Shown: positions 1 through 12,287 of the stretch, piece by piece
Numbering within the stretch: the stretch's first letter is position 1
How the letters are laid out: every line of letters starts with the position of its first letter
NCBI GenBank assembly: GCA_036479435.1
Contig: JAZGFI010000175.1
Span: 1 to 26,439 of the forward strand
From: Planctomycetota bacterium
GTDB lineage: Bacteria > Planctomycetota > GCA-002687715 > DRQF01
Direction: 5' to 3'
DNA: 26,439 bases
Program-made: the position numbers and the translations under genes
The notes under the pieces: model-generated
Seen by the model: only the letters and a program-made list of their open reading frames with translations
Database searches by the model: none
Told to the model about the DNA's origin: nothing

Positions 1-329
1 GGAATCCAGCCCTCCGCCAACCATTGAATGACCTGGGGCAAGATCTCGATGACTTCAACTTTTGAGGTCCGTGAGTCCTTAAGCGCTTCGAGAGCGGTGA
101 AACCGAGTCCCAATCCGCCCACCAAGATCTCAAGATTGTCGTTCCCTTGATGAATCTCGAGGGCGCGACTGGCGAGCGCACGTTCCGACTCCGTGTGATA
201 ACTGCTCATCAAAAAAACATGGTCAAGCGTGACTTCGGTCACGATGATGCCGGGACGCGAGAGCAACTCGCGACGCCGTAAACAAAGCAGGCCAAGGGGC
301 GTCTCTTGGTAGTCGAGCAATTCAATCAT
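1..329 (-). CDS. Spermidine-synthase-like class I SAM-dependent transferase (3' end runs off the window; not in ORF track)
   Basis: Hand translation from ATG at 329: MIELLDYQETPLGLLCLRRRELLSRPGIIVTEVTLDHVFLMSSYHTESERALASRALEIHQGNDNLEILVGGLGLGFTALEALKDSRTSKVEVIEILPQVIQWLAEGWI. It has SAM-binding motif I (LVGGLGLG), an acidic residue at the end of beta-2 (VIE) and the FLMSS...SE..LA signature. The start overlaps the upstream stop (ATGATTGA). Confidence 0.8.
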   Translation of the reverse strand, partial: MIELLDYQETPLGLLCLRRRELLSRPGIIVTEVTLDHVFLMSSYHTESERALASRALEIHQGNDNLEILVGGLGLGFTALEALKDSRTSKVEVIEILPQVIQWLAEGWI

Positions 330-1587
330 GGCGTGCCGCTTCATCCGAGTGACCATCAATCCGACTTCGTAAATACTCGCGCTGCGGGTCGGACCCCGCC
401 AAGCTAGCCGCAAGGCGAAACGCGGCTCGCGACTCATCAGCGTTTCCGGCGAGCGAAAGGAGCTCGGCTCGAACGACATGGTAGCAGAGATAGGGCGCCA
501 GAATTTCCTTCCCTTCCAAGGCCTGAAACTCGTGGAAGCCAGCGGCCGGGCCTCGGGCCATGGCGATCGCGACGCAACGATTCAAGGCCACCACGGGTGA
601 AGAAGTCAAGGCCAGCAGTTGGTCATAGAACTTCAAGATTTGTGGCCAATCGGTCGCCGCGGTGCTGGGTGCCGCCGCGTGACAGGATGCGATTCCCGCC
701 TCCAAATGAAAGCGACTCAGCGCTGGGCTCTTCATGGCTGCGAGTAAATGACGAAAGCCGCGCCGGATGAGGTCTTGGTCCCAGCGTCCGCGATCTTGAT
801 CCGCCAAGAGCTGCAAACGCCTCGCTTCGTCCGATCGCGTCGTCAAGCGAGCGGCGTGAAAGCACATGAGTGCCGCCAAAGCTTCACCCGAAGGACTCGC
901 GATCGCCGGATTCTCCAGCAAGACGCTGAGTAAGCGCATCGCCTCGTCAACAAGGTCGCGGCGTACCAGCTCTCGGCCCTGGTCCGCCACATAGCCAGCG
1001 TTGAACATCAAGTAGATGACGTCGAGAACAGAATCAACCCGCGCCGCCAGATTCGCCGGCGAAGGAAAATCGAAGGGGATCTCCCCTTCCTTCAAGACTC
1101 GCTTGGCCCGAACCAAGCGCTGCTGAATGGTCGCGCGTTCTGCAAACAGGGCGCGCGAGATTTCCCCGGTGCTGAAACCGCCGACAAGCCCTAGCGTCAA
1201 GGCGACTCGAGAGGGACCGGCGAGATTCTCGTTGCAACAGTGAAAGATCATCCGCAGCACGCTGTCCGCGACTTCGTCGGGCAACAGCTCCTCGGATGCC
1301 CGCGCCTCAACATCCAAGTCGGGCAAGAAGTCCATCTGCCGACTCGATCGCCGAATGCGATCAAAGGCCGCGTTCTTCGCCACGGTCCGCAACCAGCCCT
1401 TGGGATTGTTGGGGACACCATGAAAAGGCCAACTGCGAAGGGCCTTTAGGAGAGCCTCTTGCACGACGTCCTCGGCGAGCCCGAGATGTTGCACTCCGAG
1501 CTGCCGAGTCAGTTCAGCCGTGATCTCGGTCGATGCCTGGCGGAAGAGATGGCCCACCAAGTCATCGACACAACCTTTTTGGGGCAT
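322..1587 (-). CDS. ECF RNA polymerase sigma factor, ECF42-like, with C-terminal TPR-containing extension
   Basis: Sigma2 (LAEDVVQEA, WP..G.P.NP.GWL), LRMIF.CC motif, sigma4 (GFSTGEI...QRLVRAK) and a long C-terminal extension (IYLMFN.GY, LADQDR.RWD, TDWPQI..YD.L, SPVVALNR.VA). A DGPF gene lies directly upstream, the typical ECF42 context. Confidence 0.9.
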   Translation of the reverse strand: MPQKGCVDDLVGHLFRQASTEITAELTRQLGVQHLGLAEDVVQEALLKALRSWPFHGVPNNPKGWLRTVAKNAAFDRIRRSSRQMDFLPDLDVEARASEELLPDEVADSVLRMIFHCCNENLAGPSRVALTLGLVGGFSTGEISRALFAERATIQQRLVRAKRVLKEGEIPFDFPSPANLAARVDSVLDVIYLMFNAGYVADQGRELVRRDLVDEAMRLLSVLLENPAIASPSGEALAALMCFHAARLTTRSDEARRLQLLADQDRGRWDQDLIRRGFRHLLAAMKSPALSRFHLEAGIASCHAAAPSTAATDWPQILKFYDQLLALTSSPVVALNRCVAIAMARGPAAGFHEFQALEGKEILAPYLCYHVVRAELLSLAGNADESRAAFRLAASLAGSDPQREYLRSRIDGHSDEAARHD

Positions 1588-1593
1588 CGGGCT

Positions 1594-1947
1594 TTAGCTA
1601 GGACCTTCCATCTCTTCGACGGCGCGAATCTCGATGCTGCCGAACTGAAGATGAGGACAATCCGCAGCCAGCGACTGCGCGGCATCGTAACCTTCAGCTT
1701 CCACTAAGAAGAAACCGCCGAAGACCTCCTTGGCTTCCGCGAAAGGTCCGTCGGTTACCGCCATTTTGCCGTCGGCTCCTCTTAGCAGCCGGCCTTCGCC
1801 GTCACAGAGCTTCTCGCCGCCGAGATGTTGAGCACCGAGTTTCTCGCACCAAGCGCCATAGGCCTGAATGACCTTTTGCATCTCTTCCGGGCTAACGTCG
1901 TCGAATTCTCCGATGCGATCTCGCAGTAAAAGCATGTATCTAGCCAT
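1594..1947 (-). CDS. YciI/DGPF-domain protein
   Basis: 117 aa with M.RYMLL, TDGPFAEAKEVFGGFFLV and GSIEIR. Shine-Dalgarno AAGGAGG at 1954-1960. Confidence 0.9.
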   Translation of the reverse strand: MARYMLLLRDRIGEFDDVSPEEMQKVIQAYGAWCEKLGAQHLGGEKLCDGEGRLLRGADGKMAVTDGPFAEAKEVFGGFFLVEAEGYDAAQSLAADCPHLQFGSIEIRAVEEMEGPS

Positions 1948-2004
1948 GACCGGCCTCCTTAAGGTTCTCGATTAGCGACGCACTCAGCGCCCTTTCATCT
2001 CGAC

Positions 2005-2031
2005 GACGAACGGCGGACGCGAAAATCGACC
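2005..2031 (-). promoter_or_regulatory. Candidate ECF42-type promoter for the DGPF-ECF operon
   Basis: Minus strand reads GGTCGA-TTTTCGCGTCCGCCGTT-CGTC, resembling the recalled ECF42 consensus (-35 TGTCGA, -10 CG(A/T)C) with one mismatch, about 60 nt upstream of the DGPF start. Confidence 0.55.
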
Positions 2032-2151
2032 GACTAAGTAAATTAATCGAGGTTGATAACTCAGAGCCGAGGAACGGTCAGCGCTTAGTGGGTTGTCAAA
2101 TTAAGTTGCAGCTCGCAAGATGTCACGAATTCACTTAATGACCCGCCAGGA

Positions 2152-3339
2152 CTATTGCAGCTCTTTCGCGATGGCGGCTTCGAGTTCATCCGGGGAAAAC
2201 TGGAAGGGCCCCGGCCCTCCGTGATAGGCGATGCGACCATCGCGGCCCACGAGATACAGGCGATCCGGCCAGGCGGAGTAGGCCTTGTTGGCGCTATCCT
2301 TCAGATCATCGACGAGGGCTGGCATCGGCGCGAGAGCGAGCTTGGTCATGCAGACCGCCGCGACGTTGCTGCGCTCATCCAAGTTGACGGGATCTTCAAC
2401 GATCGGCATGCCATCGCCGCCCATGGGGGAACGACTGTCGATGGCATGGGCCTCGCGAATGTAGACCAAGAAAAACTGAACCTCATCGCCGTAGTCTTGC
2501 CACACCTTCTTCAGCCGACCGGCTGAGTTACGAAACGGCGGTCAGGTGTAGCTACCGAAGATGAGGGCAACGGGTTTTTTTCCTCGAAACGATGACAAGG
2601 CAACGTCGCTTCTACTTTCAAGGGACCTGAGCACGAAATCGGGAGCTTGGCTCCCTACTTCGGGGCCGGTCTTAGGGCGCGATGCCCCGGCCCCTCGCCC
2701 TGCCCCGGGTTGCCGGCGCCGCAGAGTCCAGACGCCATCGCCGTCATCTCGCGAGTTGAAGAAACTCACGAGCTCGATCTTCGATGCGCGGCCATCGGAG
2801 TCTTTGTCGACTCCGTCTAAAACGGACTTCCAGGGATCGGTACCACGCATCGTGGGTGACGGCTCGGAAGCAAACTTCTTGCCCTTCGACGCACTGGCGA
2901 ACTCGGCCGCGTCGACTTGTCCATCACCGCCCGTATCCATGCGATCGACGGCTGATTCCAGCTCGCTGAGAGCGAGGCTGTCAGCATCGTCGGCGACTTG
3001 GAAGTAGCGCGCGACCATGCGCTGCGCCATCATCCCGCGCATCATCTCTTTTCGGGATGGGCCCTTCGACTCGAAATCGGCAGCGGTCAAGATGCCGTCG
3101 TTGTCGCGATCGACGCGCTCGAAACTCTTCTGATCGCGTTTGTACTCACTCGCCGTGATACGGCCGTCAGCATCGCCATCGTACTTCTGCTCGAGGTAGG
3201 TCCAAACAGACGCCTGTTCGCCCGAAACATCCATCGGCGTTGCTGCCGCATCCAGGCCACCCGAGGGTGACGACGACGCGCAAGCGGCAAGGCCAAAACA
3301 AGCCACGCTGCAAGCCAGCCCGTAAACAAAATTCTTCAT
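2152..3339 (-). CDS. Lipoprotein with EF-hands and a C-terminal iodothyronine-deiodinase-like thioredoxin-fold domain; selenoprotein (UGA at 2542-2544 = Sec266; 395 aa)
   Basis: The two track ORFs share a frame and are joined across TGA: ...APDF...KPVALIFGSYT*PPFRNSAGRLKKVWQDYGDEVQFFLVYIREAH...DD...AYSAWPDRLYLV...IAYHGGPGPF. These match deiodinase motifs FGSxTUPPF, YIxEAH, P(E/D)RLY and GGPGP. Start ATG 3339 has SD AGGAG and lipobox LAA-C20. EF-hand loops: DGDADGRITASE, DRDNDGILTAAD, DTGGDGQVDAAE, DKDSDGRASKIE. Confidence 0.88.
2497..2541 (-). promoter_or_regulatory. Putative bacterial SECIS element directly 3' of the Sec UGA
   Basis: The mRNA after UGA reads CCGCCGUUUCGUAAC-UCAGCC-GGUC-GGCUGA-AGAAGGUGUGG. 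It forms a perfect 6-bp upper stem (2511-2526) with a 4-nt loop starting GG at +22, and an imperfect lower stem is possible (CGCCGUUU with GAAGGUG). Confidence 0.7.
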
Positions 3340-3509
3340 TGCCTGCTCCTGATCATCGCGGACCCGAGAGTCGATACGATTCTCGATCCTTACCGCCAAC
3401 GAAAAACGCAAATCGCGGCCGCGGACAGCCAGCAATTTACGCCAGGATCAAGGACTGATCGTATCACGGGTGGCGGAAGAGGTCACCTTCCCGGTTGAGG
3501 GAGGAGGCT

Positions 3510-6500
3510 TTACTTTAGGAGTTTCAATTCGGCGGTGGCTGAGGTGTGCTCGGTGAAAGTTGTGACTTTCTCGGCCACGCACTTTAGGAGGAAACTCTTG
3601 GTGGCCGCGAGGTCGCCGCGGGCGCGGCGGAATTGGGCGACGTAGTAGTAAGCTTCGCAGCGGTGTTCGCGATCCTTCGCGGCGAGGCGGATAAAGGCCT
3701 TCTCGCTCAGATCTCCGGCGAAGTAGTTCATGACGGTTCGCGACCACTTATCCAAAGCGAGCGTCGTCTCGGCGCGGTACAGAGCAGCTTTAGTCTGCAC
3801 CGCATCCAGTTGGGTTCCCGTGCGAAGATCGATCAGCAGGCGCCGCATGAGCAAGTAGGGATGTTGATTTCCCTGATCGCTGCGAGCCTGGGCCTCGATG
3901 GCACTTCGGGCTTTTCTCCATTCGCGCCGATTGAAGAAATCATAGGCGCTGCGGGAATAACTCGACGGTTCGGGAAGGTCAGGTCCACGGGCGGATGCGA
4001 CCAAATGAAAGCGCTCTTTCCACGCCGCCTTGATGAGGGCTTTGGGCCACTCAAGACTCTCAAGGATGCGGTGATTCTTCAGCGACTTGTCGGCGGTTGC
4101 GACGGCTAGCCAATTCACGCCGTCATGAAGGAGCAAGTGAGGACGCTGACCAGCTTTGCTTTTCGCATTGAAGAATCCACGTGGAAAAGTCTTCGAAGTC
4201 TCCCATGATTGGATGGGCCGGGTTCGATTGGGGAACTTCTTCATCACAAAGACTTTTTGCGTCGTCGAAATGGGCCACATGGCCGTGAGTTCATAGCCGT
4301 CTTTCGCCTTTTTTTTGATCCAGTCGGAGGGGATCACCGAGTCCGGCTTGTAGGACTGACCGATCTGGTTGCTATTGGCGAACTTTCTCATGACGACGGT
4401 GTGCTCGCTGCCCGACCACCCACCGGTTTCCAAGACGTATTTCTCGTCCCAACGCTTTTTGATCCAAGCGGCGGGAAAAGCCTTGGACACTTCAGTTCGC
4501 TGTTGAAACCCCTTCGCTTGGGTATCGAACACGGCCCAACGGTCAGCGCCGTGACTGATGTAGTTGACGTAGTAGCCCTCTTTTTGATTCCTGTCGTCGA
4601 GGGTCTTAAGGGGCTTCGGCCAAGACGGCCGAAGGATCCAACGCACCGAGCGATACTGCCCCTGGTGCATGATGACGAACCACTTGTCGAGCCTTTTGAG
4701 AAGAGCCTTTTGGTTCGGGAACAGAGCGATGGACTGGCGGGCGTCGATATAAGCCGCAGTCTTCGATTTTAACTTGTCATGGCAGTCGCTTCGCAAGGCA
4801 AGTGCCCGGCTGTTGTAGGGCTCACGCTTTAGGATGTGATCAAGATCAGCTCTTGCGTCGCGGTAGTTCTTTTTCTCTATGTACTGAAGCGCGCGCTGTA
4901 ACCTGATGCCGGGTTGATCGTAGTCGGCGATGGCAGCCGTCAAATCGCGGATCTTGCCCGCTGAAAACTGGGGGCCGAGGCGTCTGAGCGCTCCTTCCAA
5001 ACGAGCGATCCCCAGCAAACGACGGATCTCGGCTCGCTGCTTTGCCGGTAAGGCCTTGTCTTTGGAGAGAGCATTGGCCTGCGAAATCGCGGCGCCAATG
5101 ACGCCGGAGGCTCCGCCGGGGTCGGCAAGCGCCGCCTTGATATGCCAGATTTGTCCCTCGAGTGATAGGCTCGGCACACCAAGGTATCCGCGGCGTGCCT
5201 CGGCGTAATCGCCGTCGAGATGCTTCGCTCGAGAAAAGCGCAAGAGGTTATTCACTAACTCCGCAGACGGCGGCGCCCCCAATGTGACCACAATCTCAAT
5301 GACTTCAGACCCGAGGTTTGGCGCAGAAAACCAAGGCATAGGGCGCTTCTTAGATCTTCGTGAGCCGCCAAACTTAAGCGCCTGCAGGTAATCGCGGTAG
5401 GCGCCTGCAGCGTCCTGGATCGCCATTTTCGAGACGGCGCGGTTGAGCCAGGCCTGAGAAAACTTGCCGTCATCAGCAATAGCGCGGTCAAAAAAGACGA
5501 TTGCTTCGCGATGGCGTCCCTGTTTGGCCTCCGCATAGCCAATGTTGTTATTGACGATGGCGGTAGTCAACCCACTCGTAACGGCGCTCGCTCGCTTGGC
5601 GAGATCGCTGTCGGCGAGCGAATCGCCCGCGACCGCTTTGAGAGCGATGAGGTTGGACAAGGCCGCCGCGTCTTTCGCATCCTGCCTCAAGGCATCTTCA
5701 AGATCCATTTGGACCAAAGCAGAGGCTGGAACCAAGCGGGTGCTTCCTTGCCGATAGGCCTGGGAGGCCTCCAACCACCATTTCACCACGGCTCGATTCG
5801 AATAAGTGGTCGCATCCTGACCCTTGTCATCGTCGAGAACAAAAGTCAGGTCTTGGTAGGCCTCTTCCATGTTCTCAAAGATGCTCAACAGCGCTCCGCG
5901 CATGCGGCGGGCCCTAATGGACTTGGAGTCGATCTCTAACGCACGATTGAGCGACTCGAGAGCCTTGACTACGTCCATCTCAGCAAGTTGTTTGGCGGCG
6001 CGGTCTGCGCAAACTGCTGCCGTCTCGCGAAAAGTCTCGATACTCTTGCGGCGAACGTTCCCCGCACGGTCCGTCGCCACGAGTTCGAATTTGTTCACTC
6101 CCGGGACCAAGCTAAGCGTCCGAGTGAATCGGCCGAAGATATCGACGGTAACCGGTTTGCCCGCAAGTTCCACCGTCTCAAGGTTGGTGTCCATCACGCC
6201 GCAAGCCACAGACAATGAAGTCTCGATCAGGGTCTTGGGAAAGGCGTCTACGAAGATGTCCGGTTGCTTGGTGTCGACGACGAAAGCCCGTTCGATCGTC
6301 GTAGATTTTTTGGTCTCATCCGTGGCCGTGGCCTTAATCCGATAAGAACCGTCGTCGAGGGCGACGACGCTATTCCAAGGAATCCCCAAGGTATCACCAG
6401 CCGAATTCATGGCGTTGACATTGCGGTTCGTGGGACCTGTGATGCTCAAACTCACTCGGCAAGTGGTCGCGTCCTGGTAGCTTCCAATAATCGAAACCGG

Positions 6501-8360
6501 ATTCTCACGCACATGGGCGCCCTGCGCTGGCACGGCAATGGCCATCACCGGCGGGCGGGAGTCCGATCGGAGATTCAGTTCTATCTCCGCCGCGGAATCG
6601 CCGAAAGCGATGAGGCGAATGGAAATCTGGTGGCCCCCTTCGGGCAGAACGAGCTCAGAGCGAAACTGCCCGCCGCTAATCTTGACCTGGTCTCCGTTGA
6701 CCTCGAGCTGGCTTTGGTCCAAACCGAAGTCATAAAGACGATCAAGGTCGACACTGCCGAGGATCGAGGCGCGACCGTCGGGAAGGATCGCGCCGGACTT
6801 GGGGCGCTCTATTTTCAGAGCCGCGCCGAGGGCCTGAGTGATGGCACTCGCGATCTCGCGGCTCAATTCTTTACCGCCGGCGTCCTCATCGATAGACAGG
6901 GCCTCTCGGCAAAGTTCATAGGCGCGACCGAGATTGCCATCTTCGAGTTGCCGTTGTCCCAAGACCAGCAGCGCTGGTCTTAACTCGGCATCGAGGCCGG
7001 GGTAGTCCGGTGATTCCTTCTTCACGCGAAGAAGCGTCGTCACGCCGCGGTCAAGGGTGGCAGGACGACGAATGTCGGCCACGCCTTCGTCGAAGCGTGC
7101 CCGATACTCGCCAACATTAGAGCCAATCCACCCCAGTTTCCACGCCGCGAATCCACTCCCGGCGGCGATCAAAAACAGAAATGCAAACAGCACGAGGGCC
7201 GTTCGACCCCGCCGTACTGGAGCGTGCCGCGCCCCGCTCGGGACCACGGTACGCGACATTCTTGTTGCCGCGTTCGAATCCGAAGGAGCTCGCGGGGCCA
7301 TCGTCGGCGGAATGGTCGAACTAAGGGGCGGCACGATCGTTCCAGGGATGCTCTGAAGATCGCTATTGCTCTGCACGGCATCGCGAATGCGTTGCATCGT
7401 CGCCGTGGGCACTATGGCGGTCGTCCGGTCGGGACGGTCACCGGCCATCTGAACCCCGCGAGCCAACTGCTCTTCGCCTTTGCGATTGCGATAAGGCGCC
7501 AAGAGTGAAATGACTTCGACGCCGCTTTGAGGGCGCTTGCTTGGGTTCTTGTCAATGGCGCGACGGTAGAAGTCGATGACGCCATCTTCGAGGTCCGGGC
7601 GTTCGAGGGCAAGATCCGGGAGCGGGTCGTCACAAACGCGGCGCATGACATCGACCAAGGAACCACTGGGCACCGCGTGATGCCCCGTCAACATGTAGTA
7701 GAGCGTCAAGGCCAGCGAGTAGACATCGGCCGCCGGTGTCAGGCTTTTCGCATCCGCGTACTGTTCCGGTGGCATGTAGTTGGGCGTGCCCATCATCAAG
7801 CCGCTGCGCGTCTCAAGACCGTCCAAGCTCTCTGCGACTTTTGCCAAGCCCAAATCCGCGACTTTGATCCGACCGTGGTCGGCAATCATGATGTTGTCGG
7901 GTTTAATGTCGCGGTGGACGATGCCCATCTTGTGGGCTTGCGCTAATCCACGAGCCGCTTCATAGATGATCGTGACCGCGGCGCTGCTGGGCTCGATATG
8001 GCCCACGCGATTCACGCGCTCGCGGATCGTCTCACCCGGCACGAACTCCATGACGAGGTAGTGGATGCCGCGCGACTCGTGGACGTCGAAAACGCGTACC
8101 AGGTTCTCACTGTCAATGGAAGCGGCGACCGTAGCCTCGCGGCGAAAGCGTTGAACGAACTCCTCATTTTCCTGGGCTAGCCCGGGTCTCAAGCACTTGA
8201 CCGCGACGTCAATATCCAGCTTAAGGTGACGGCCGCGGTAAACGGTTCCCATCCCCCCCTGCCCGAGTTTCGCCGTCAAGACGACGGGGTAAAGGACCTT
8301 GAAGCCCTCCACCTCCCAGGCGTTTTGAAGCAGTGGGTCCGATCTAAAATCGCCGCTCAT
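3510..8360 (-). CDS. Receptor-like Hanks-type Ser/Thr kinase (kinase - TM - TPR - Ig-like repeats - TPRs - Trp/Lys repeat domain - NlpI-like C-terminus), 1616 aa
   Basis: GQGGMGTV, VAVK, HRDIKPDN, DLG, GTPNYMPPEQ and DVYSL motifs. A Pro/Thr linker precedes the TM helix (RRGRTALVLFAFLFLIAAG). Beta-sandwich repeats (L.EG.H.I.I, L.DGSY.I.ATATD, L.PG.N.F.L.ATDRAGN) and TPR patterns (A...RA, AWLNRA) follow. Confidence 0.92.
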   Translation of the reverse strand: MSGDFRSDPLLQNAWEVEGFKVLYPVVLTAKLGQGGMGTVYRGRHLKLDIDVAVKCLRPGLAQENEEFVQRFRREATVAASIDSENLVRVFDVHESRGIHYLVMEFVPGETIRERVNRVGHIEPSSAAVTIIYEAARGLAQAHKMGIVHRDIKPDNIMIADHGRIKVADLGLAKVAESLDGLETRSGLMMGTPNYMPPEQYADAKSLTPAADVYSLALTLYYMLTGHHAVPSGSLVDVMRRVCDDPLPDLALERPDLEDGVIDFYRRAIDKNPSKRPQSGVEVISLLAPYRNRKGEEQLARGVQMAGDRPDRTTAIVPTATMQRIRDAVQSNSDLQSIPGTIVPPLSSTIPPTMAPRAPSDSNAATRMSRTVVPSGARHAPVRRGRTALVLFAFLFLIAAGSGFAAWKLGWIGSNVGEYRARFDEGVADIRRPATLDRGVTTLLRVKKESPDYPGLDAELRPALLVLGQRQLEDGNLGRAYELCREALSIDEDAGGKELSREIASAITQALGAALKIERPKSGAILPDGRASILGSVDLDRLYDFGLDQSQLEVNGDQVKISGGQFRSELVLPEGGHQISIRLIAFGDSAAEIELNLRSDSRPPVMAIAVPAQGAHVRENPVSIIGSYQDATTCRVSLSITGPTNRNVNAMNSAGDTLGIPWNSVVALDDGSYRIKATATDETKKSTTIERAFVVDTKQPDIFVDAFPKTLIETSLSVACGVMDTNLETVELAGKPVTVDIFGRFTRTLSLVPGVNKFELVATDRAGNVRRKSIETFRETAAVCADRAAKQLAEMDVVKALESLNRALEIDSKSIRARRMRGALLSIFENMEEAYQDLTFVLDDDKGQDATTYSNRAVVKWWLEASQAYRQGSTRLVPASALVQMDLEDALRQDAKDAAALSNLIALKAVAGDSLADSDLAKRASAVTSGLTTAIVNNNIGYAEAKQGRHREAIVFFDRAIADDGKFSQAWLNRAVSKMAIQDAAGAYRDYLQALKFGGSRRSKKRPMPWFSAPNLGSEVIEIVVTLGAPPSAELVNNLLRFSRAKHLDGDYAEARRGYLGVPSLSLEGQIWHIKAALADPGGASGVIGAAISQANALSKDKALPAKQRAEIRRLLGIARLEGALRRLGPQFSAGKIRDLTAAIADYDQPGIRLQRALQYIEKKNYRDARADLDHILKREPYNSRALALRSDCHDKLKSKTAAYIDARQSIALFPNQKALLKRLDKWFVIMHQGQYRSVRWILRPSWPKPLKTLDDRNQKEGYYVNYISHGADRWAVFDTQAKGFQQRTEVSKAFPAAWIKKRWDEKYVLETGGWSGSEHTVVMRKFANSNQIGQSYKPDSVIPSDWIKKKAKDGYELTAMWPISTTQKVFVMKKFPNRTRPIQSWETSKTFPRGFFNAKSKAGQRPHLLLHDGVNWLAVATADKSLKNHRILESLEWPKALIKAAWKERFHLVASARGPDLPEPSSYSRSAYDFFNRREWRKARSAIEAQARSDQGNQHPYLLMRRLLIDLRTGTQLDAVQTKAALYRAETTLALDKWSRTVMNYFAGDLSEKAFIRLAAKDREHRCEAYYYVAQFRRARGDLAATKSFLLKCVAEKVTTFTEHTSATAELKLLK

Positions 8361-8433
8361 CGAGTTCCATTCCCTTCGATCACGCAGCTCCGAACTTCGC
8401 CCGAGCTGCCGTCGTCATCCTATCGTCGCCGGG

Positions 8434-10347
8434 CTACTTACTGTTAAACAGCCAAAGTTCGTAGTTCACCGTATCCGAGCCACTTTTCGCTTGGTAGACC
8501 TCGACCTGATGGGCGCCCGCATTTCGCCTGCTAACCGCGACCTGCCAAGTATTCGGCATTGAACTGACGGCACCTCGCATGCCAATTTTCCCGAAGCGGC
8601 GGCCCGTCACGAGGGCGACTAAAGCCCAGCTTTTGCCCGCCCTGAATTTGGTCTTCTCGCCAGCTCCCGGTTTCAGTGAGCCCGCCCTGATCTTTCGTCC
8701 CTTGAGGGCCGGGAAGCGGGGCCAAGAGGACCGCGCCTTGATCTCGCGCAAGGCGAGGGCGGGGTCGTGGTTGGAAGACCACAGGCTCAGGAATCGCTTG
8801 CGCCAGTTCTTTTCGAGAGCTTGAAGTTCCGCGACCTCGCTACCATCCAAAAGCTGTCGCACTAGGTCAACTCGCTGCCCAAAGGCCGTACTGCCCTGAC
8901 TGATACGCTGCCCACCGATTGATTTGAAGTTGCCAGCACTATGAACGGCGACAACCTTAGAATCCAAGCCGACGACCGGACTTCCGCTCGCCCCACCCTC
9001 GCCCTTGAAGTTGTAAGTCACGAGCTGTTCGAAACGTGTCTCGTTCTTCTCCAAGAAAAAATCGAAGACCTGGCTGATTGGTCCGATGTCACTGCTAGCT
9101 TTGGTGCGCTCCAGGGCCCCCACGATGCCACCTTCAACGGGATATCCCAAAAATGCCGCTGGTGTGCCGCGAGCCAAGGACCGCAAGGCTTCATCAGACG
9201 CCATGGCAAGCGGCGGCCCAAAGGCCGCAGTGGCTTCGGGACGGCACCACATGAGAGCCACGTCACAGGCGGGAATGAACTGCAAAAAACCGGAGCCATT
9301 GGGATCCAAGGGCAGGTATTCGCGGCGCAGCCGAGACCAACGTACGTAGCCGGGATGGATCTTGACACGCTGGACTTCGAAGTCGCGCACCGGATCGCCA
9401 GCGCGAACCACCAGGGTGGTCCCAGTCTTAAGATGGCCTTCGGCGACGTGGGCATTCGTGGCGAGGACGCCGGGAGCTACGACCCAGCAAGTGCCGCCGC
9501 CCGAATACATGCGCGTCGACGACCCGACCTTCCGTTTTCTGAAAACCGGATAGACCGACTTCTCTATTTTTGGAAAGACGTCGGAGAATCCACGGTTGGA
9601 TTCACTGAGCCTTTGCTTAAAAGTCGACGAGAGTTCTTCGAGTCGCGCGTTTGCATCTCGTCTCAGGCCTCGTGATGTTCGCTCGGCGACACCGCGGGCG
9701 GTTAGCTCGGCTTCGTTGCGAGCTTCTTTGCGTGCGGCCTCTTTAACTCTGTTCTCTGCACCGCCGCCGAGAAGCCAGAAGAACCCGACCATGACGCCAA
9801 CGATTAGCAAACCGATGGCAACCATGAGGAAATAGATGATCGTTCGGTGGCGTTGACGTTCGTGCTGACCCGCCTCGGAGACGATCTTCATGACGGACTC
9901 GGTGCTCGGGGTCTTGCGAGGTCTGGCGCGCGGTAAGCTGGGCGATGCCGCGCCCTTTGGTGCCGCCGGCATGGACGGCGACGTCACAAAGAGATTCGCA
10001 CCGTCTTTTCCCAAGACGATTTCGTCGCCAACACGAAGAGCAACCGCAGCCTTGATGCGCTGCCCATTGACGAAAGTCCCGTTGCTCGATCCTAAATCAT
10101 GGAGCCACAACACGTCATCGCTGAACCGGAGTTCGACGTGATGACCGGATACGACGCGGTCCTTTTCGGCACTAAAGGCAATGTCGTTACTGGGGTGTCG
10201 CCCCAAGGTGACGATCTCGGCATCAAACTTGAATTTGACGCCATCGAGACTCGAGCCCGAACCGCAAGTTACCTCGATAGACTTCGTCATCGCGGGATGG
10301 TGTTTCCAAGATCTAAGGGACGACGGCATTGGACCGCTATGTCGCAT
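8434..10347 (-). CDS. FHA domain - TM - trypsin-like (S1) serine protease; true start may be ATG 10290
   Basis: FHA motifs TLGR, VSGHH and DLGSSNGTFVNG; TM helix IIYFLMVAIGLLIVGVMVGFFWLL; coiled coil; catalytic triad contexts TNAHV, CDVAL and GASGSPV. Confidence 0.88.
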   Translation of the reverse strand: MRHSGPMPSSLRSWKHHPAMTKSIEVTCGSGSSLDGVKFKFDAEIVTLGRHPSNDIAFSAEKDRVVSGHHVELRFSDDVLWLHDLGSSNGTFVNGQRIKAAVALRVGDEIVLGKDGANLFVTSPSMPAAPKGAASPSLPRARPRKTPSTESVMKIVSEAGQHERQRHRTIIYFLMVAIGLLIVGVMVGFFWLLGGGAENRVKEAARKEARNEAELTARGVAERTSRGLRRDANARLEELSSTFKQRLSESNRGFSDVFPKIEKSVYPVFRKRKVGSSTRMYSGGGTCWVVAPGVLATNAHVAEGHLKTGTTLVVRAGDPVRDFEVQRVKIHPGYVRWSRLRREYLPLDPNGSGFLQFIPACDVALMWCRPEATAAFGPPLAMASDEALRSLARGTPAAFLGYPVEGGIVGALERTKASSDIGPISQVFDFFLEKNETRFEQLVTYNFKGEGGASGSPVVGLDSKVVAVHSAGNFKSIGGQRISQGSTAFGQRVDLVRQLLDGSEVAELQALEKNWRKRFLSLWSSNHDPALALREIKARSSWPRFPALKGRKIRAGSLKPGAGEKTKFRAGKSWALVALVTGRRFGKIGMRGAVSSMPNTWQVAVSRRNAGAHQVEVYQAKSGSDTVNYELWLFNSK

Positions 10348-10400
10348 GCCGGGGGCGACACTCTACCTGCACGACGCAGCCTCGGAAAGCCTAGCTTGGC

Positions 10401-12287
10401 CTACTTTCCCTTCTCAATCTTGAGACTGTCGAAGAGGCGCCCCTCGAGATCGTAGGCCTTCATTTCCAATGTGCCGCCATTGACGGCCACAAAGCAAAAA
10501 TGATGGCCGTGTCGCACGGTGTTTTGAAAAAACGGGCGGATGGGGCCGGCTCGTTCCAAAGGACCTCCACCGCCGCCGGTGACCATGTAGACCGTGCCCT
10601 TTGCCGCCATCGTTGCGCGGCCCTTTTTCAGCGGCCAAGTCCGTTCGTAGCTGTGGATATGACCATTCCAGACAATATCGACTCCGTAGCGGTCAAAAAG
10701 TGGCACGAGGGCTCGAACGCGAAGATCGCCTTTCGTCGAGGGGCCGTACCAAGTATTGCCGTAGTCGTTCTCGTCGGAGGTGTAGGCCGGGTGGTGATAG
10801 CAGACGATCTTCCATTTCGCCTTCGAAGCCCTCAGCGCTCGCTCGAGGAACTTGTACTGAGCGGTTTCAGGGCCGACCGCGCGGTTGGAATCGAGCATGA
10901 AGAACTGCGTGTTTCCATAGTGAAAAGTGTAGTAGTACTCCGGGTCGGGGAGCGACATGTAGTCGTAATAGAATCGCGCGTCTTGTTCGTGGTTCCCAAG
11001 GACCGGGAAGAGCGCTACGCGCTCCAAAAGCGGTTTCATCGAACTGAAGAACTCTTGCTCCCACTGTTGTTTGACCTTGCCCGCGTCGACGAGGTCACCG
11101 GGATGCAGAACGAAGTTCGGCCGCAAATCCCAGGCGTGCTGAGCGATCTTCGTAGCGATCTTGGGTTGGGTTTGGGTGTCGCTGATAACCGCAAAAGCGA
11201 AGGGAGTGTCACGCTCGGGAGCGGTCTGAAAACTAAGCACGGGCGATGTGACTTTTTGCCCGCGCTTGTCGGCCAGTTCAATCTGGTAGTAGTAGGCGGT
11301 GTTGGCCTTTAGACTATTCAGCCTGATCTCCCCTAAGGTTGACGCGAGGCTGACGCTTTTCTCGGCTTCGAAGACCGCTTTTCGTTGATCGCCTTTTCCT
11401 TGAAACAGCACTTTGGTCCCGAAACAAACTTTGGCTCGCGTCGGGTGAGAGCTCTCCCACCTCAAAGTCATGCCGTCGCGAGTCGCCCATTGAAGATAGG
11501 GATGAATGACCCAAGAGAGGTCTTCCGGTCCGTGAGCCATCGCTTTGGCGTCTGCGAGCTCCGCAAAGTGGCGAAAAGCCCCTTTTACCCAGGTCTCTTT
11601 TGCTGTCTGATCAAAAATCCGAACCGAGCGAATCCGGCCCTTGAAGTAGTAACTCTCGTCGTCGTCTTGATAGCCCCCAATGATGAGGGGAGCTGAGTTC
11701 GGATAAAGGAGGTCACCGAACTGCACTTGGCTTTCAGCCTCGAGCTTGCCGTTCACATAGACTCTTTGAAAAGTCCCGTCGTAAGTGCCAACGACGTGGT
11801 ACATGCGGCCCAATTCGAATCTGGAATCCGCGCTTAGGTAGGTCATCTTGCCGTCGCCATCATCGGCCCCCTTGGTTGATATCCCAAAGGTGAAATGACC
11901 GTTGCTATGGCCGAGCAACCAACCTTTCTCAGACGGGCCGTTGTCCTGCAAGCTGCCGATAATGCCGCCCCATCGGCTGCGCTCGTTAACGGCGACCCAA
12001 GCCTCGACGGTCATGTTACGGAGCGGCAATTTCTGTTGCGACTCCGCGATGTTGTCGGCGAGGACGATGCGCGTCGTCCGGCCATCAAACCAAAGCGCTT
12101 GATTTACCCCTTCGCCGACAAACTTGACCTTGCCCTCAACGCGCCCCCTGGTGCCTAAGATGGGCTCAAGAACTCCGGCGCTTATTTGTGCTTCCGTAAG
12201 TTGCCAGCTGCCAATCGGATCGGGTCCGTCGTGGCGCGATGAGAAAGGAAGGGAAACCAGCAGAATCAAGGGGAGGGGCCAATACAT
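10401..12287 (-). CDS. Secreted LamG/concanavalin-like + FN3-like + calcineurin-like metallophosphoesterase (purple-acid-phosphatase-like)
   Basis: Hydrophobic N-terminus; LamG_3 pattern (MTVEAWV, YHVVGTYDG...VYVNG, IGG, FKGRI..VRIFD); PYLQ...L..L...T.YYY; phosphoesterase motifs SDTQ, GDLVD, GNHE, YHH, GHIHSYER and TGGGG. Confidence 0.88.
   Translation of the reverse strand: MYWPLPLILLVSLPFSSRHDGPDPIGSWQLTEAQISAGVLEPILGTRGRVEGKVKFVGEGVNQALWFDGRTTRIVLADNIAESQQKLPLRNMTVEAWVAVNERSRWGGIIGSLQDNGPSEKGWLLGHSNGHFTFGISTKGADDGDGKMTYLSADSRFELGRMYHVVGTYDGTFQRVYVNGKLEAESQVQFGDLLYPNSAPLIIGGYQDDDESYYFKGRIRSVRIFDQTAKETWVKGAFRHFAELADAKAMAHGPEDLSWVIHPYLQWATRDGMTLRWESSHPTRAKVCFGTKVLFQGKGDQRKAVFEAEKSVSLASTLGEIRLNSLKANTAYYYQIELADKRGQKVTSPVLSFQTAPERDTPFAFAVISDTQTQPKIATKIAQHAWDLRPNFVLHPGDLVDAGKVKQQWEQEFFSSMKPLLERVALFPVLGNHEQDARFYYDYMSLPDPEYYYTFHYGNTQFFMLDSNRAVGPETAQYKFLERALRASKAKWKIVCYHHPAYTSDENDYGNTWYGPSTKGDLRVRALVPLFDRYGVDIVWNGHIHSYERTWPLKKGRATMAAKGTVYMVTGGGGGPLERAGPIRPFFQNTVRHGHHFCFVAVNGGTLEMKAYDLEGRLFDSLKIEKGK

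Follow-up and report, generated by a model that had tools for sequence, protein, structure and literature searches.

A Planctomycetota gene split by an in-frame TGA almost certainly encodes a deiodinase-like selenoprotein, predicted to be an exported EF-hand lipoprotein

The window analysed here is a stretch of 26,439 nucleotides from a Planctomycetota bacterium (assembly GCA_036479435.1, contig JAZGFI010000175.1). Its minus strand carries a gene for a deiodinase-like protein, for which open reading frame (ORF) calling with table 11 yields two ORFs, 2542..3435 and 2152..2505. The first ends in ...LIFGSYT at a TGA (2544-2542); past it the same frame reads PPFRNSAGRLKKVWQDY..., enters the second ORF and closes at the TAG at 2154-2152. 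When TGA is translated as U, exactly one TGA and no other stop lie between the ATG at 3339 and this TAG, and the residue stands in the context V-A-L-I-F-G-S-Y-T-U-P-P-F-R. An earlier note, made from the letters alone, had read the two ORFs as one deiodinase-like protein of 395 amino acids with selenocysteine (Sec) at position 266. The open frame on which it relied is confirmed by our translation. The deiodinase motifs that it listed do follow the Sec codon in order (YIREAH at 293-298, WPDRLY at 357-362 and GGPGPF at 374-379), and the profile search that it proposed returned T4_deiodinase across the TGA (PF00837, residues 228-392, E 4.6e-26, 92 bits against a cut-off of 27). In a search of the contigs the gene was found in single copy in the genome. 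Its database cluster holds products of 265 and 230 amino acids, the lengths expected if translation stops at the TGA, so standard gene callers do split the gene, as had been anticipated.

The two apparent genes are almost certainly one gene whose internal 'stop' encodes selenocysteine, and decoding of the TGA at 2544-2542 as Sec is, in our judgement, very nearly certain. Profile searches of the contigs recovered all four genes that the earlier note had proposed to look for: selA (E 1.1e-138), selB (357 bits, cut-off 242; contig C237), selD (372 bits) and selC, the tRNA-Sec (67 bits, cut-off 47), with a UCA anticodon loop. Contig C117 groups selA, selD and the tRNA-Sec, all above curated cut-offs, and selD has an in-frame TGA of its own, followed by a similar GGUC-type hairpin. 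The note had also considered that the codon might be a misread TGC or TGT. No letter other than those of TGA occurs at 2542-2544 in the contigs of four runs from three studies; these are assemblies rather than raw reads, the window DNA may itself come from X1, X2 or X4, which carry a flag to that effect, and the piece from X7 reaches only 7 letters beyond the codon. As three of the assemblies may represent the same DNA, their agreement is modest support, and the comparative evidence is stronger. No RNA data set with this sequence was listed, and one study labelled 'invertebrate metagenome' was not taken as a clue to habitat, since the DNA may stem from it.

Among 60 related genomes, 27 have a deiodinase-like match at E < 1e-20, and each such match contains one TGA. 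With the present locus included, the Sec column holds TGA in 27 of 28 loci; the 28th escaped the search pattern, and its TGA was seen on inspection. All 27 genomes with a strong match carry selA, and a tRNA-Sec was detected in 26 of them. Strong matches are missing from all 10 selA-negative genomes, and from 23 selA-positive ones as well; because related genomes are not independent, no p-value is given. Across 201 genomes of the phylum the domain is present in 62, with 86 matches, of which 82 contain one TGA and four none. In this count the Sec column itself was verified only at fetched loci, and one of the four TGA-free matches begins after it. One match (L143) has an additional TAG and looks broken. 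In Cys-codon loci the Sec column reads TGC or TGT in 34 of 34 cases. The 225 domains taken from databases are mostly Cys forms, since gene callers cut the TGA forms; Cys occupies the column in 200 of them, Trp in 7, and Ser, Leu, Ala or Arg in 13. Full-length Cys twins with the same lipoprotein-EF-hand-deiodinase layout (P0003-P0007, P0010, P0017, P0021) are present alongside database homologs that end at ...FGSYT. Named homologs are mostly from Planctomycetota. Homologs occur in up to five copies per genome. The Sec form dominates in this phylum, and many relatives are cut at the UGA in protein databases.

A second, more distant Sec-containing deiodinase-like subfamily was also seen (L132 and L135-L141, from genomes G035, G017, G024, G121, G196, G112, G083 and G012). 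Its members mostly have Y-x-R-E-P-H and a C-terminal K-x-x-W, and include fusions to thioredoxin, HMA or alpha/beta hydrolase domains. In G012 the copy is about 4 kb away from selA.

Behind the UGA lies a hairpin that has the form of a bacterial Sec insertion sequence (SECIS), with a 6-bp stem that begins 15 nt, and a GGUC loop whose G lies 21 nt, after the UGA. The codons GCC, GGT and CGG that build it show no variation across the 16 closest loci (16 of 16 each), while neighbouring Gly, Thr and Pro codons take all four endings. In the long frames of this genome GGT accounts for about 20%, and CGG for about 15%, of its codon family. The loop G is kept in all 27 Sec loci despite change in the encoded residue. 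Pairing in the stem reaches 82.1% of cells, where shuffling gives 69.7 +/- 1.9% (0/500) and sliding the stem gives 22-46%, and 15 cells are changed on both sides of the stem against 5.2 in shuffles, in a test whose structure was derived from the query, which favours it. The 34 Cys-codon loci, retrieved with a search pattern that requires a Cys codon, served as negative control: they have on average 1.9 of the six positions paired and a fold energy of -4.7 kcal/mol, compared with 4.9 and -11.0 kcal/mol in the 27 Sec loci. These comparisons indicate that the putative SECIS is under selection. The earlier note had allowed that close relatives might all have Cys and no conserved hairpin; instead they keep TGA in the same column together with the hairpin, and the homologs at large mostly have TGA or Cys there. 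A 3' UTR element was considered and rejected, as the 95 nt past the stop are no more stably folded than shuffled sequence (z 0.28).

Table 1 Features of the deiodinase-like gene, in window positions
Feature	Position	Strand	Description and basis
Whole gene	2152..3339	minus	395 aa with Sec at 266, ATG 3339 to TAG 2154-2152; sequence translation
Shine-Dalgarno-like AGGAG	3346..3350	minus	6 nt before ATG 3339; seen in sequence, putative function
Signal peptide ending in lipobox L-A-A-C (residues 17-20)	3280..3339	minus	Read by eye from sequence; Cys20 predicted lipid anchor
EF-hand module, about residues 45-205	2725..3207	minus	Pfam EF-hand over cut-off, loop pattern, AF2 model
Flexible Gly/Arg linker, residues 212-220	2680..2706	minus	pLDDT < 50 at model residues 178-186
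Deiodinase-like thioredoxin/peroxiredoxin-fold catalytic domain, residues 228-392	2164..2658	minus	PF00837, AF2, Foldseek, VIA
In-frame TGA, Sec266 in S-Y-T-U-P-P-F	2542..2544	minus	Codon 266; translation, conservation, contigs
Putative bacterial SECIS apical hairpin UCAGCC-GGUC-GGCUGA	2511..2526	minus	Fold, frozen codons, covariation, absence in Cys forms
YIREAH, start of deiodinase-specific insertion	2446..2463	minus	Tyr293/Glu296/His298 = Dio2 Tyr157/Glu160/His162; alignment
Cys330, probable resolving cysteine, helix after insertion	2350..2352	minus	Conservation; putative role
WPDR	2260..2271	minus	Pro358 at Dio2 Phe224 position (Pro in Dio1); Asp359-Arg360 = Dio2 Glu225-Arg226
GGPGPF loop	2203..2220	minus	Pro376 at Dio2 Lys241 / Dio3 Arg275 position

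The other parts of the protein are listed in Table 1. While the earlier reading holds for Sec266 and the length of 395 residues, it contained neither the lipoprotein signal nor the EF-hand module, and the SECIS and Cys330 had likewise escaped notice. By the lipobox rule the protein is predicted to be an exported lipoprotein, anchored to the membrane through Cys20, and close homologs likewise begin with signal-like N-termini. Four loops of the following region fit the EF-hand pattern (residues 54-65, 77-88, 135-146 and 178-189), with their Asp/Glu positions invariant or nearly so in 41 sequences. The AF2 model (mean pLDDT 90.5, pTM 0.75) shows the region as a folded helix-loop-helix domain, and from its loop sequences the module probably binds Ca2+. 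EF-hand loops occur in the same 16 loci that have the frozen hairpin and in none of the other 11, which suggests that the module is accessory; as many homologs lack it, catalysis appears to be independent of it. Weak resemblances to other EF-hand proteins were set aside as generic. Lanmodulin (LanM) is recognized by a Pro at position 2 of its EF loops, which is missing here, and its model NF053806 gave 23.5 bits against a cut-off of 135; matches to XopAW were far under cut-off. In the fold search the EF-hand module had no match of its own, the list being taken up by matches to the catalytic domain.

The catalytic domain is modelled with high confidence (AF2 pLDDT 96.2). Its best Foldseek matches are mouse Dio2 and Dio3 (9H48, TM 0.88; 4TR3, TM 0.80), with ResA/TlpA next, and VIA aligned 165 residues to Dio3 (4TR4) at Z 22.8 and an rmsd of 2.1, followed by Bcp1 (Z 17.9), AhpE (17.8) and ResA (17.7). 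We compared the active site with residues whose roles in catalysis and in the pocket are described in the available text of PMC11592359 and PMC9141512. Dio2 Ser127, Thr129, Tyr157, Glu160, His162 and Arg226 are kept as S263, T265, Y293, E296, H298 and R360, invariant in 26 of 26 Sec rows, and Glu225 is replaced by Asp359. The pocket choices are Dio1-like, with Pro358 for Dio2 Phe224 and Pro376 for Lys241. Two residues are lost, relay His182 (Pro317) and Trp167 (Arg303), and in the columns of the second cysteines the proximal Cys is Tyr264 and the distal one Met339. Over the 225 database domains the insertion residues are nearly fixed (Tyr 224, Glu 224, His 218), as are Pro358 (223), which lies near the thioredoxin cis-Pro position in the alignment, and Arg360 (215), whose strand region is the one in which peroxiredoxins would have their catalytic Arg. 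The Phe of U-P-P-F is found in 195 and an acidic residue 359 in fewer (Asp 32, Glu 13). The protein is predicted to have a deiodinase fold. It is no vertebrate-type deiodinase.

Apart from Cys20, the mature protein contains a single further cysteine, Cys330. The position is Cys in 23 of 26 Sec-form rows and in 171 of the 225 database domains. Among 220 complete rows, this helix Cys is absent from all 10 that have a proximal cysteine (S-C-T) and present in 166 of the 210 others. In a tree built from 87 rows (every one of the 10 proximal rows, samples of 35 with the helix Cys and 15 with neither, and 27 Sec loci) the proximal state needs five changes, at least four of them forced by well-supported branches, with bootstrap values that are not fully settled. 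Having either the proximal or the helix cysteine is the pattern expected of a resolving cysteine, and this conservation makes Cys330 the probable one. One homolog, L139, reads U-P-P-C. Domain fusions are informative as well. An AhpD-like region is joined to the domain, at either end, in 14 of 150 profile hits and also at locus L133, and L040, L137 and L138 have thioredoxin CxxC domains attached; other fusions involve TPR, EF-hand, hydrolase and HMA domains. AhpD reduces the oxidised peroxiredoxin AhpC, so the deiodinase-like domain would seem to accept electrons and to be recycled by its partner. The genome itself encodes a DsbD domain and, among 15 pattern matches, 11 TlpA/peroxiredoxin-like W-U candidates.

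These features would fit the following scheme. SelB would bind the GGUC-loop hairpin behind the UGA, leading to insertion of Sec266, and the protein would be exported and anchored at Cys20, as its lipobox predicts, with the EF-hand module binding Ca2+ as a structural or accessory unit. The selenolate of Sec266, held by a network of Ser263, Thr265, Tyr293, Glu296 and His298, would attack a small electrophilic oxidant and become oxidised, a step modelled on deiodinase and peroxiredoxin chemistry. Cys330 would then resolve it to a selenenyl-sulfide, which a dithiol reductase would recycle. In this organism the reductase would probably be a TlpA-like exported protein supplied by DsbD, and in relatives the fused AhpD-like or thioredoxin domain. 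The substrate would be an extracytoplasmic oxidant, that is, a hydroperoxide or a reactive halogen species (HOX, N-halamine). Taken together, export with lipidation, the binding of Ca2+, the cycle between Sec266 and Cys330 and its recycling through a dithiol partner are likely in our view. The whole reading, an exported Sec/Cys reductase that resembles an atypical 2-Cys peroxiredoxin with a deiodinase-type pocket and scavenges such oxidants, is put forward tentatively, at a little under even chances. A common oxidant as substrate would suit the spread of Cys homologs over several phyla; one record title points to a freshwater lake.

Several observations weigh against this scavenger scheme. The peroxiredoxin active-site motif is PxxxT/SxxC, and here it is incomplete, with the Ser at -3 present and Leu259 rather than Pro at -7. 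The fold is nearer to Dio3 (Z 22.8) than to any peroxiredoxin (Z <= 17.9), and the whole deiodinase insertion, dispensable for peroxiredoxins, is kept. Neither second cysteine is found in 44 of the 220 rows. The 13 domains whose Sec column has Ser, Leu, Ala or Arg count here too; they include P0011, P0019, P0085, P0088, P0143, P0192, P0244 and P0278 as well as second domains of the tandem proteins P0140, P0141 and P0146. Such domains may have lost their function, may reflect errors or may bind without redox activity. The AhpD fusions sit in Cys-form proteins of other clades and not in this protein. AhpD-fold proteins moreover include the debrominase Bmp8, although we found no paper naming it, so that an AhpD fusion does not fix the substrate. 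As to the hairpin, its stability alone is unremarkable against shuffles (z -1.05 to +1.31); the SECIS claim rests on conservation. In the 11 distant Sec loci, whose hairpins are weaker or displaced, only 2-4 of the six pairs form in the register used here, and G stands at the loop position in 19 of the 34 Cys loci as well.

The alternative that best survives is reductive dehalogenation by the same Sec enzyme with the same recycling, in which Sec would abstract I+ or Br+ from an extracytoplasmic halogenated phenol or tyrosine derivative and the Thr/Glu network would protonate the ring. It is conceivable but on balance improbable. The best fold match is indeed to Dio2/Dio3, and the equivalents of DIO1 Thr125, Glu156 and Tyr153 are the invariant residues of the Sec rows; in the available text of PMC9141512 Thr125 is essential (T125A is dead) and Glu156 and Tyr153 belong to the proposed relay. 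The same source reports that DIO1 H174A is active although the relay His is changed, so the loss of this residue here (Pro317) need not abolish activity. According to the parts of PMC11592359 available, Dio1-type Pro at the gate and loop positions gives a wider pocket, as Pro358 and Pro376 would here, and the Glu-Arg pair is the proposed amino-carboxylate site, which Asp359-Arg360 match. Against these points stand the Arg303 and Pro317 replacements of the omega-loop Trp and relay His, and the acidic residue 359, which is not kept family-wide. The 2005 description of the family (PMC1088965), as far as its text is available, expected a different, redox function. The genome offers no convincing halogenase or RdhA: Trp_halogenase gave weak partial matches only, the same as in control genomes, and RdhA nothing over cut-off. 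A search for vanadium haloperoxidase found no match but was uninformative, as the controls were silent too. Neighbourhoods of 53 loci (window 1-12000, 32 Cys loci and 20 Sec loci), whose genes were BLAST-clustered and inspected rather than scanned with Pfam, gave no operon clue. No neighbour family is common to more than 7 of them, no halogen-metabolism gene was recognised, and recurrence is limited to FG-GAP/ASPIC genes (7 loci), kinase-like frames (6) and synteny within a genus. Slightly more doubtful still is the fully specified version, in which an exported, Se-dependent bacterial enzyme would reductively dehalogenate halophenols or iodo- or bromo-tyrosines in an open pocket of Dio1 type, with periplasmic dithiol reductases recycling it via Cys330. 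Were it true, deiodinase chemistry would predate thyroid hormone, and the Sec form in about 30% of the sampled genomes of the phylum would be a dehalogenation capacity masked by UGA-split genes.

A protein substrate is unlikely. Exported proteins would then have their disulfides or sulfenic acids reduced by the domain in the manner of TlpA/ResA, or the domain would be a binding module switched by redox state, with EF-hand or TPR regions doing the recruiting. The place of ResA/TlpA in the Foldseek list, the position of Pro358, the variety of fusions (TPR, EF-hand, hydrolase, HMA) in up to five copies per genome, and the roughly 6% of domains without a redox residue in the Sec column would all be in keeping with such a role. 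CxxC or UxxC is absent, however, U-P-P-F standing in its place; the insertion covers the active site in Dio structures (PMC11592359, available text), and fusion to dithiol donors suits an electron acceptor more than a shuttle.

That the product is not a selenoprotein at all we regard as very unlikely. If the TGA were a true stop, through a nonsense mutation, a sequencing error or the presence of two genes (a 265-aa EF-hand lipoprotein and a 117-aa ORF from GTG 2505), truncated products would be expected, and databases do hold them; a purine-rich stretch also precedes the GTG. UGA recoding is never complete, and some 265-aa product is expected under low selenium in any case. With a stop here, however, the fold would be truncated right at the catalytic residue; moreover, conservation is lacking for the GTG codon, and the TGA keeps to one column across many families. 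With full-length Cys twins of the same architecture (P0003-P0007), a hairpin that appears to be under selection and contigs of three studies that agree, we give this explanation almost no credence. Equally little is given to reading of UGA as Trp or Cys through a changed code or suppressor tRNA: the Trp in 7 of 225 domains is most simply the work of gene callers applying a UGA=Trp table, ordinary window genes such as ORF 322..1587 terminate at TGA, the analogous selD has just one internal TGA, the full Sec system is present, the column alternates with Cys, and the TGA form tracks selA.

The genes that flank the locus lie on the same strand and are not conserved beside homologs. Downstream (322..1947, minus) they encode a YCII protein and an ECF sigma factor with a DUF6596 domain, and upstream (3510..10347, minus) an FHA-trypsin protein and a kinase with DUF7477 and TPR. 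Position 3561, within the upstream gene for this 1616-aa Ser/Thr kinase-TPR protein (3510..8360, minus), is C in three assemblies and T in the window, a synonymous difference (Thr1600). A scan of positions 1900-3600 gave no promoter-like and two terminator-like sites, which is chance level. Elsewhere, Cys-form loci of several Planctomycetota/Isosphaeraceae (L059, L061, L063, L065, L067, L081) adjoin FG-GAP/ASPIC genes and genes with prepilin-type N-termini, which we take to be DUF1559-like. TPR-fused forms named in databases are from Acidobacteria.

The genome as a whole looks very rich in selenoproteins, judged from its in-frame TGAs, and mostly in exported ones. An exported FG-GAP protein without ASPIC, with the motif N-W-U-C-I-G, is encoded on C295 (TGA 7575, minus; L107, L144-L155), with a paralog on C220 (TGA 1002, plus; L108). 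One TGA was found in 19 of 19 matches in 16 of 61 genomes, and the column and hairpin are conserved in 12 of 12 loci. It has no NCBIfam selenoprotein model, it is absent from the available text of PMC13188914, and a literature search returned nothing relevant, which makes it a candidate for an uncatalogued selenoprotein family. A CRTAC1/ASPIC FG-GAP protein fused to a TlpA-like domain, with D-T-U-S-x-Y/F-W (C126, TGA 2863, minus; L106, L156-L167), has the TGA in 21 of 22 matches and the column and hairpin in 11 of 12 loci; this type is listed among selenoprotein candidates in table S9 of PMC4807772, in the part available. Further candidates (L109-L125) comprise at least 11 TlpA/peroxiredoxin-like proteins, two DUF3179, two AhpD-like, BCP and a formate dehydrogenase-like motif. 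To these are added HMA-like proteins (one, on C124, with several TGAs), a two-TGA VPGUxxT thioredoxin (C274) and unnamed candidates on contigs C46, C97, C201, C209 and C294. The genome-wide TGA scan missed the deiodinase-like gene itself, which makes this list an incomplete one, and few of its members were compared with relatives.

The protein is a member of the bacterial deiodinase-like family, and most likely it works like a peroxiredoxin/deiodinase hybrid. The family is not new, and the earlier note was right that such proteins were known. In the text available, PMC1088965 (Zhang, Fomenko and Gladyshev 2005) described four Sec-containing sequences with bacterial SECIS elements and Cys homologs, for which a redox role was expected, and PMC9402790 (2021) a deiodinase-like protein fused with an EF-hand domain, whose extra conserved Cys was of unclear function. 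A 2026 review (PMC13188914) places the family among the selenoproteins found by bioinformatics. A literature search made mostly outside subscription papers and selenoproteome supplements found no substrate or assay for a bacterial deiodinase-like protein, and 'deiodinase' is absent from the main text of PMC5029168, PMC12013277 and PMC4807772. The high frequency and near-exclusive Sec form in this phylum were not met in the available text of PMC1088965 or PMC13188914. With the caveats given above, we add the exclusivity of proximal and helix cysteines and the AhpD/thioredoxin fusions in relatives. The gene itself is an annotation miss within a known family. Its practical value is as a soluble-domain, confidently modelled relative of the thyroid-hormone deiodinases, and the Cys twins P0003-P0007 can be expressed without Sec machinery, which makes the function of bacterial deiodinase-like proteins, a 20-year-old question, directly testable.

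With the family of PMC1088965, as far as its text is available, the gene shares the PF00837 domain, a catalytic in-frame TGA, Sec/Cys pairs and a SECIS with G in a small apical loop. The motif in the available table of PMC13188914 is UxxC, whereas here it is U-P-P-F with a distant Cys330; as the table lists one motif per family and F is the usual residue in the domains compared, we treat UxxC as non-defining. The two-domain architecture is identical to that of the EF-hand fusion in PMC9402790, in whose available text a lipoprotein signal, a SECIS or a role for the extra Cys is not mentioned. NCBIfam NF038285 (deiodinase_rel) matches both the EF-hand and the catalytic regions (E 1.5e-65), but at 221.9 bits the protein stays under the cut-off of 250 and is not assigned to the model. 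The Cys-form proteins L061 and L133 score 502 and 509 and the clade mates P0003 and L126 only 201 and 209, so that this clade is sister to the Cys clade of NF038285.

Vertebrate Dio1-3 (4TR3/4TR4, 9H48) share with the protein, at 27-28% identity, the fold, S-x-T-U-P-x-F, the YIxEAH insertion, the Arg after the gate residue and the GxxGP loop. They have an N-terminal transmembrane helix where a predicted lipid anchor and EF-hands are found here, and in our gene the putative SECIS lies inside the ORF. The relay His, loop Trp and distal Cys, present in all isoforms, are Pro317, Arg303 and Met339, with Cys330 nine residues before the distal column; there is no proximal Cys (Tyr264) and no Arg/Lys clamp. 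The core fold is also common to atypical 2-Cys and 1-Cys peroxiredoxins (Bcp1, 3DRN; AhpE, 5ID2) and to TlpA/ResA (2F9S), at Z of about 18, and AhpC-TSA matches residues 228-299 only (26.9 bits, cut-off 26). The likeness to peroxiredoxins lies in the Ser three residues before the redox residue and in the distant second Cys; unlike them and TlpA/ResA, the protein lacks the Pro of PxxxT/SxxC and a CxxC and has the deiodinase insertion in addition. From this comparison follow the predictions that Cys330 is resolving, that recycling is of the AhpD/thioredoxin type and that the pocket is Dio1-like.

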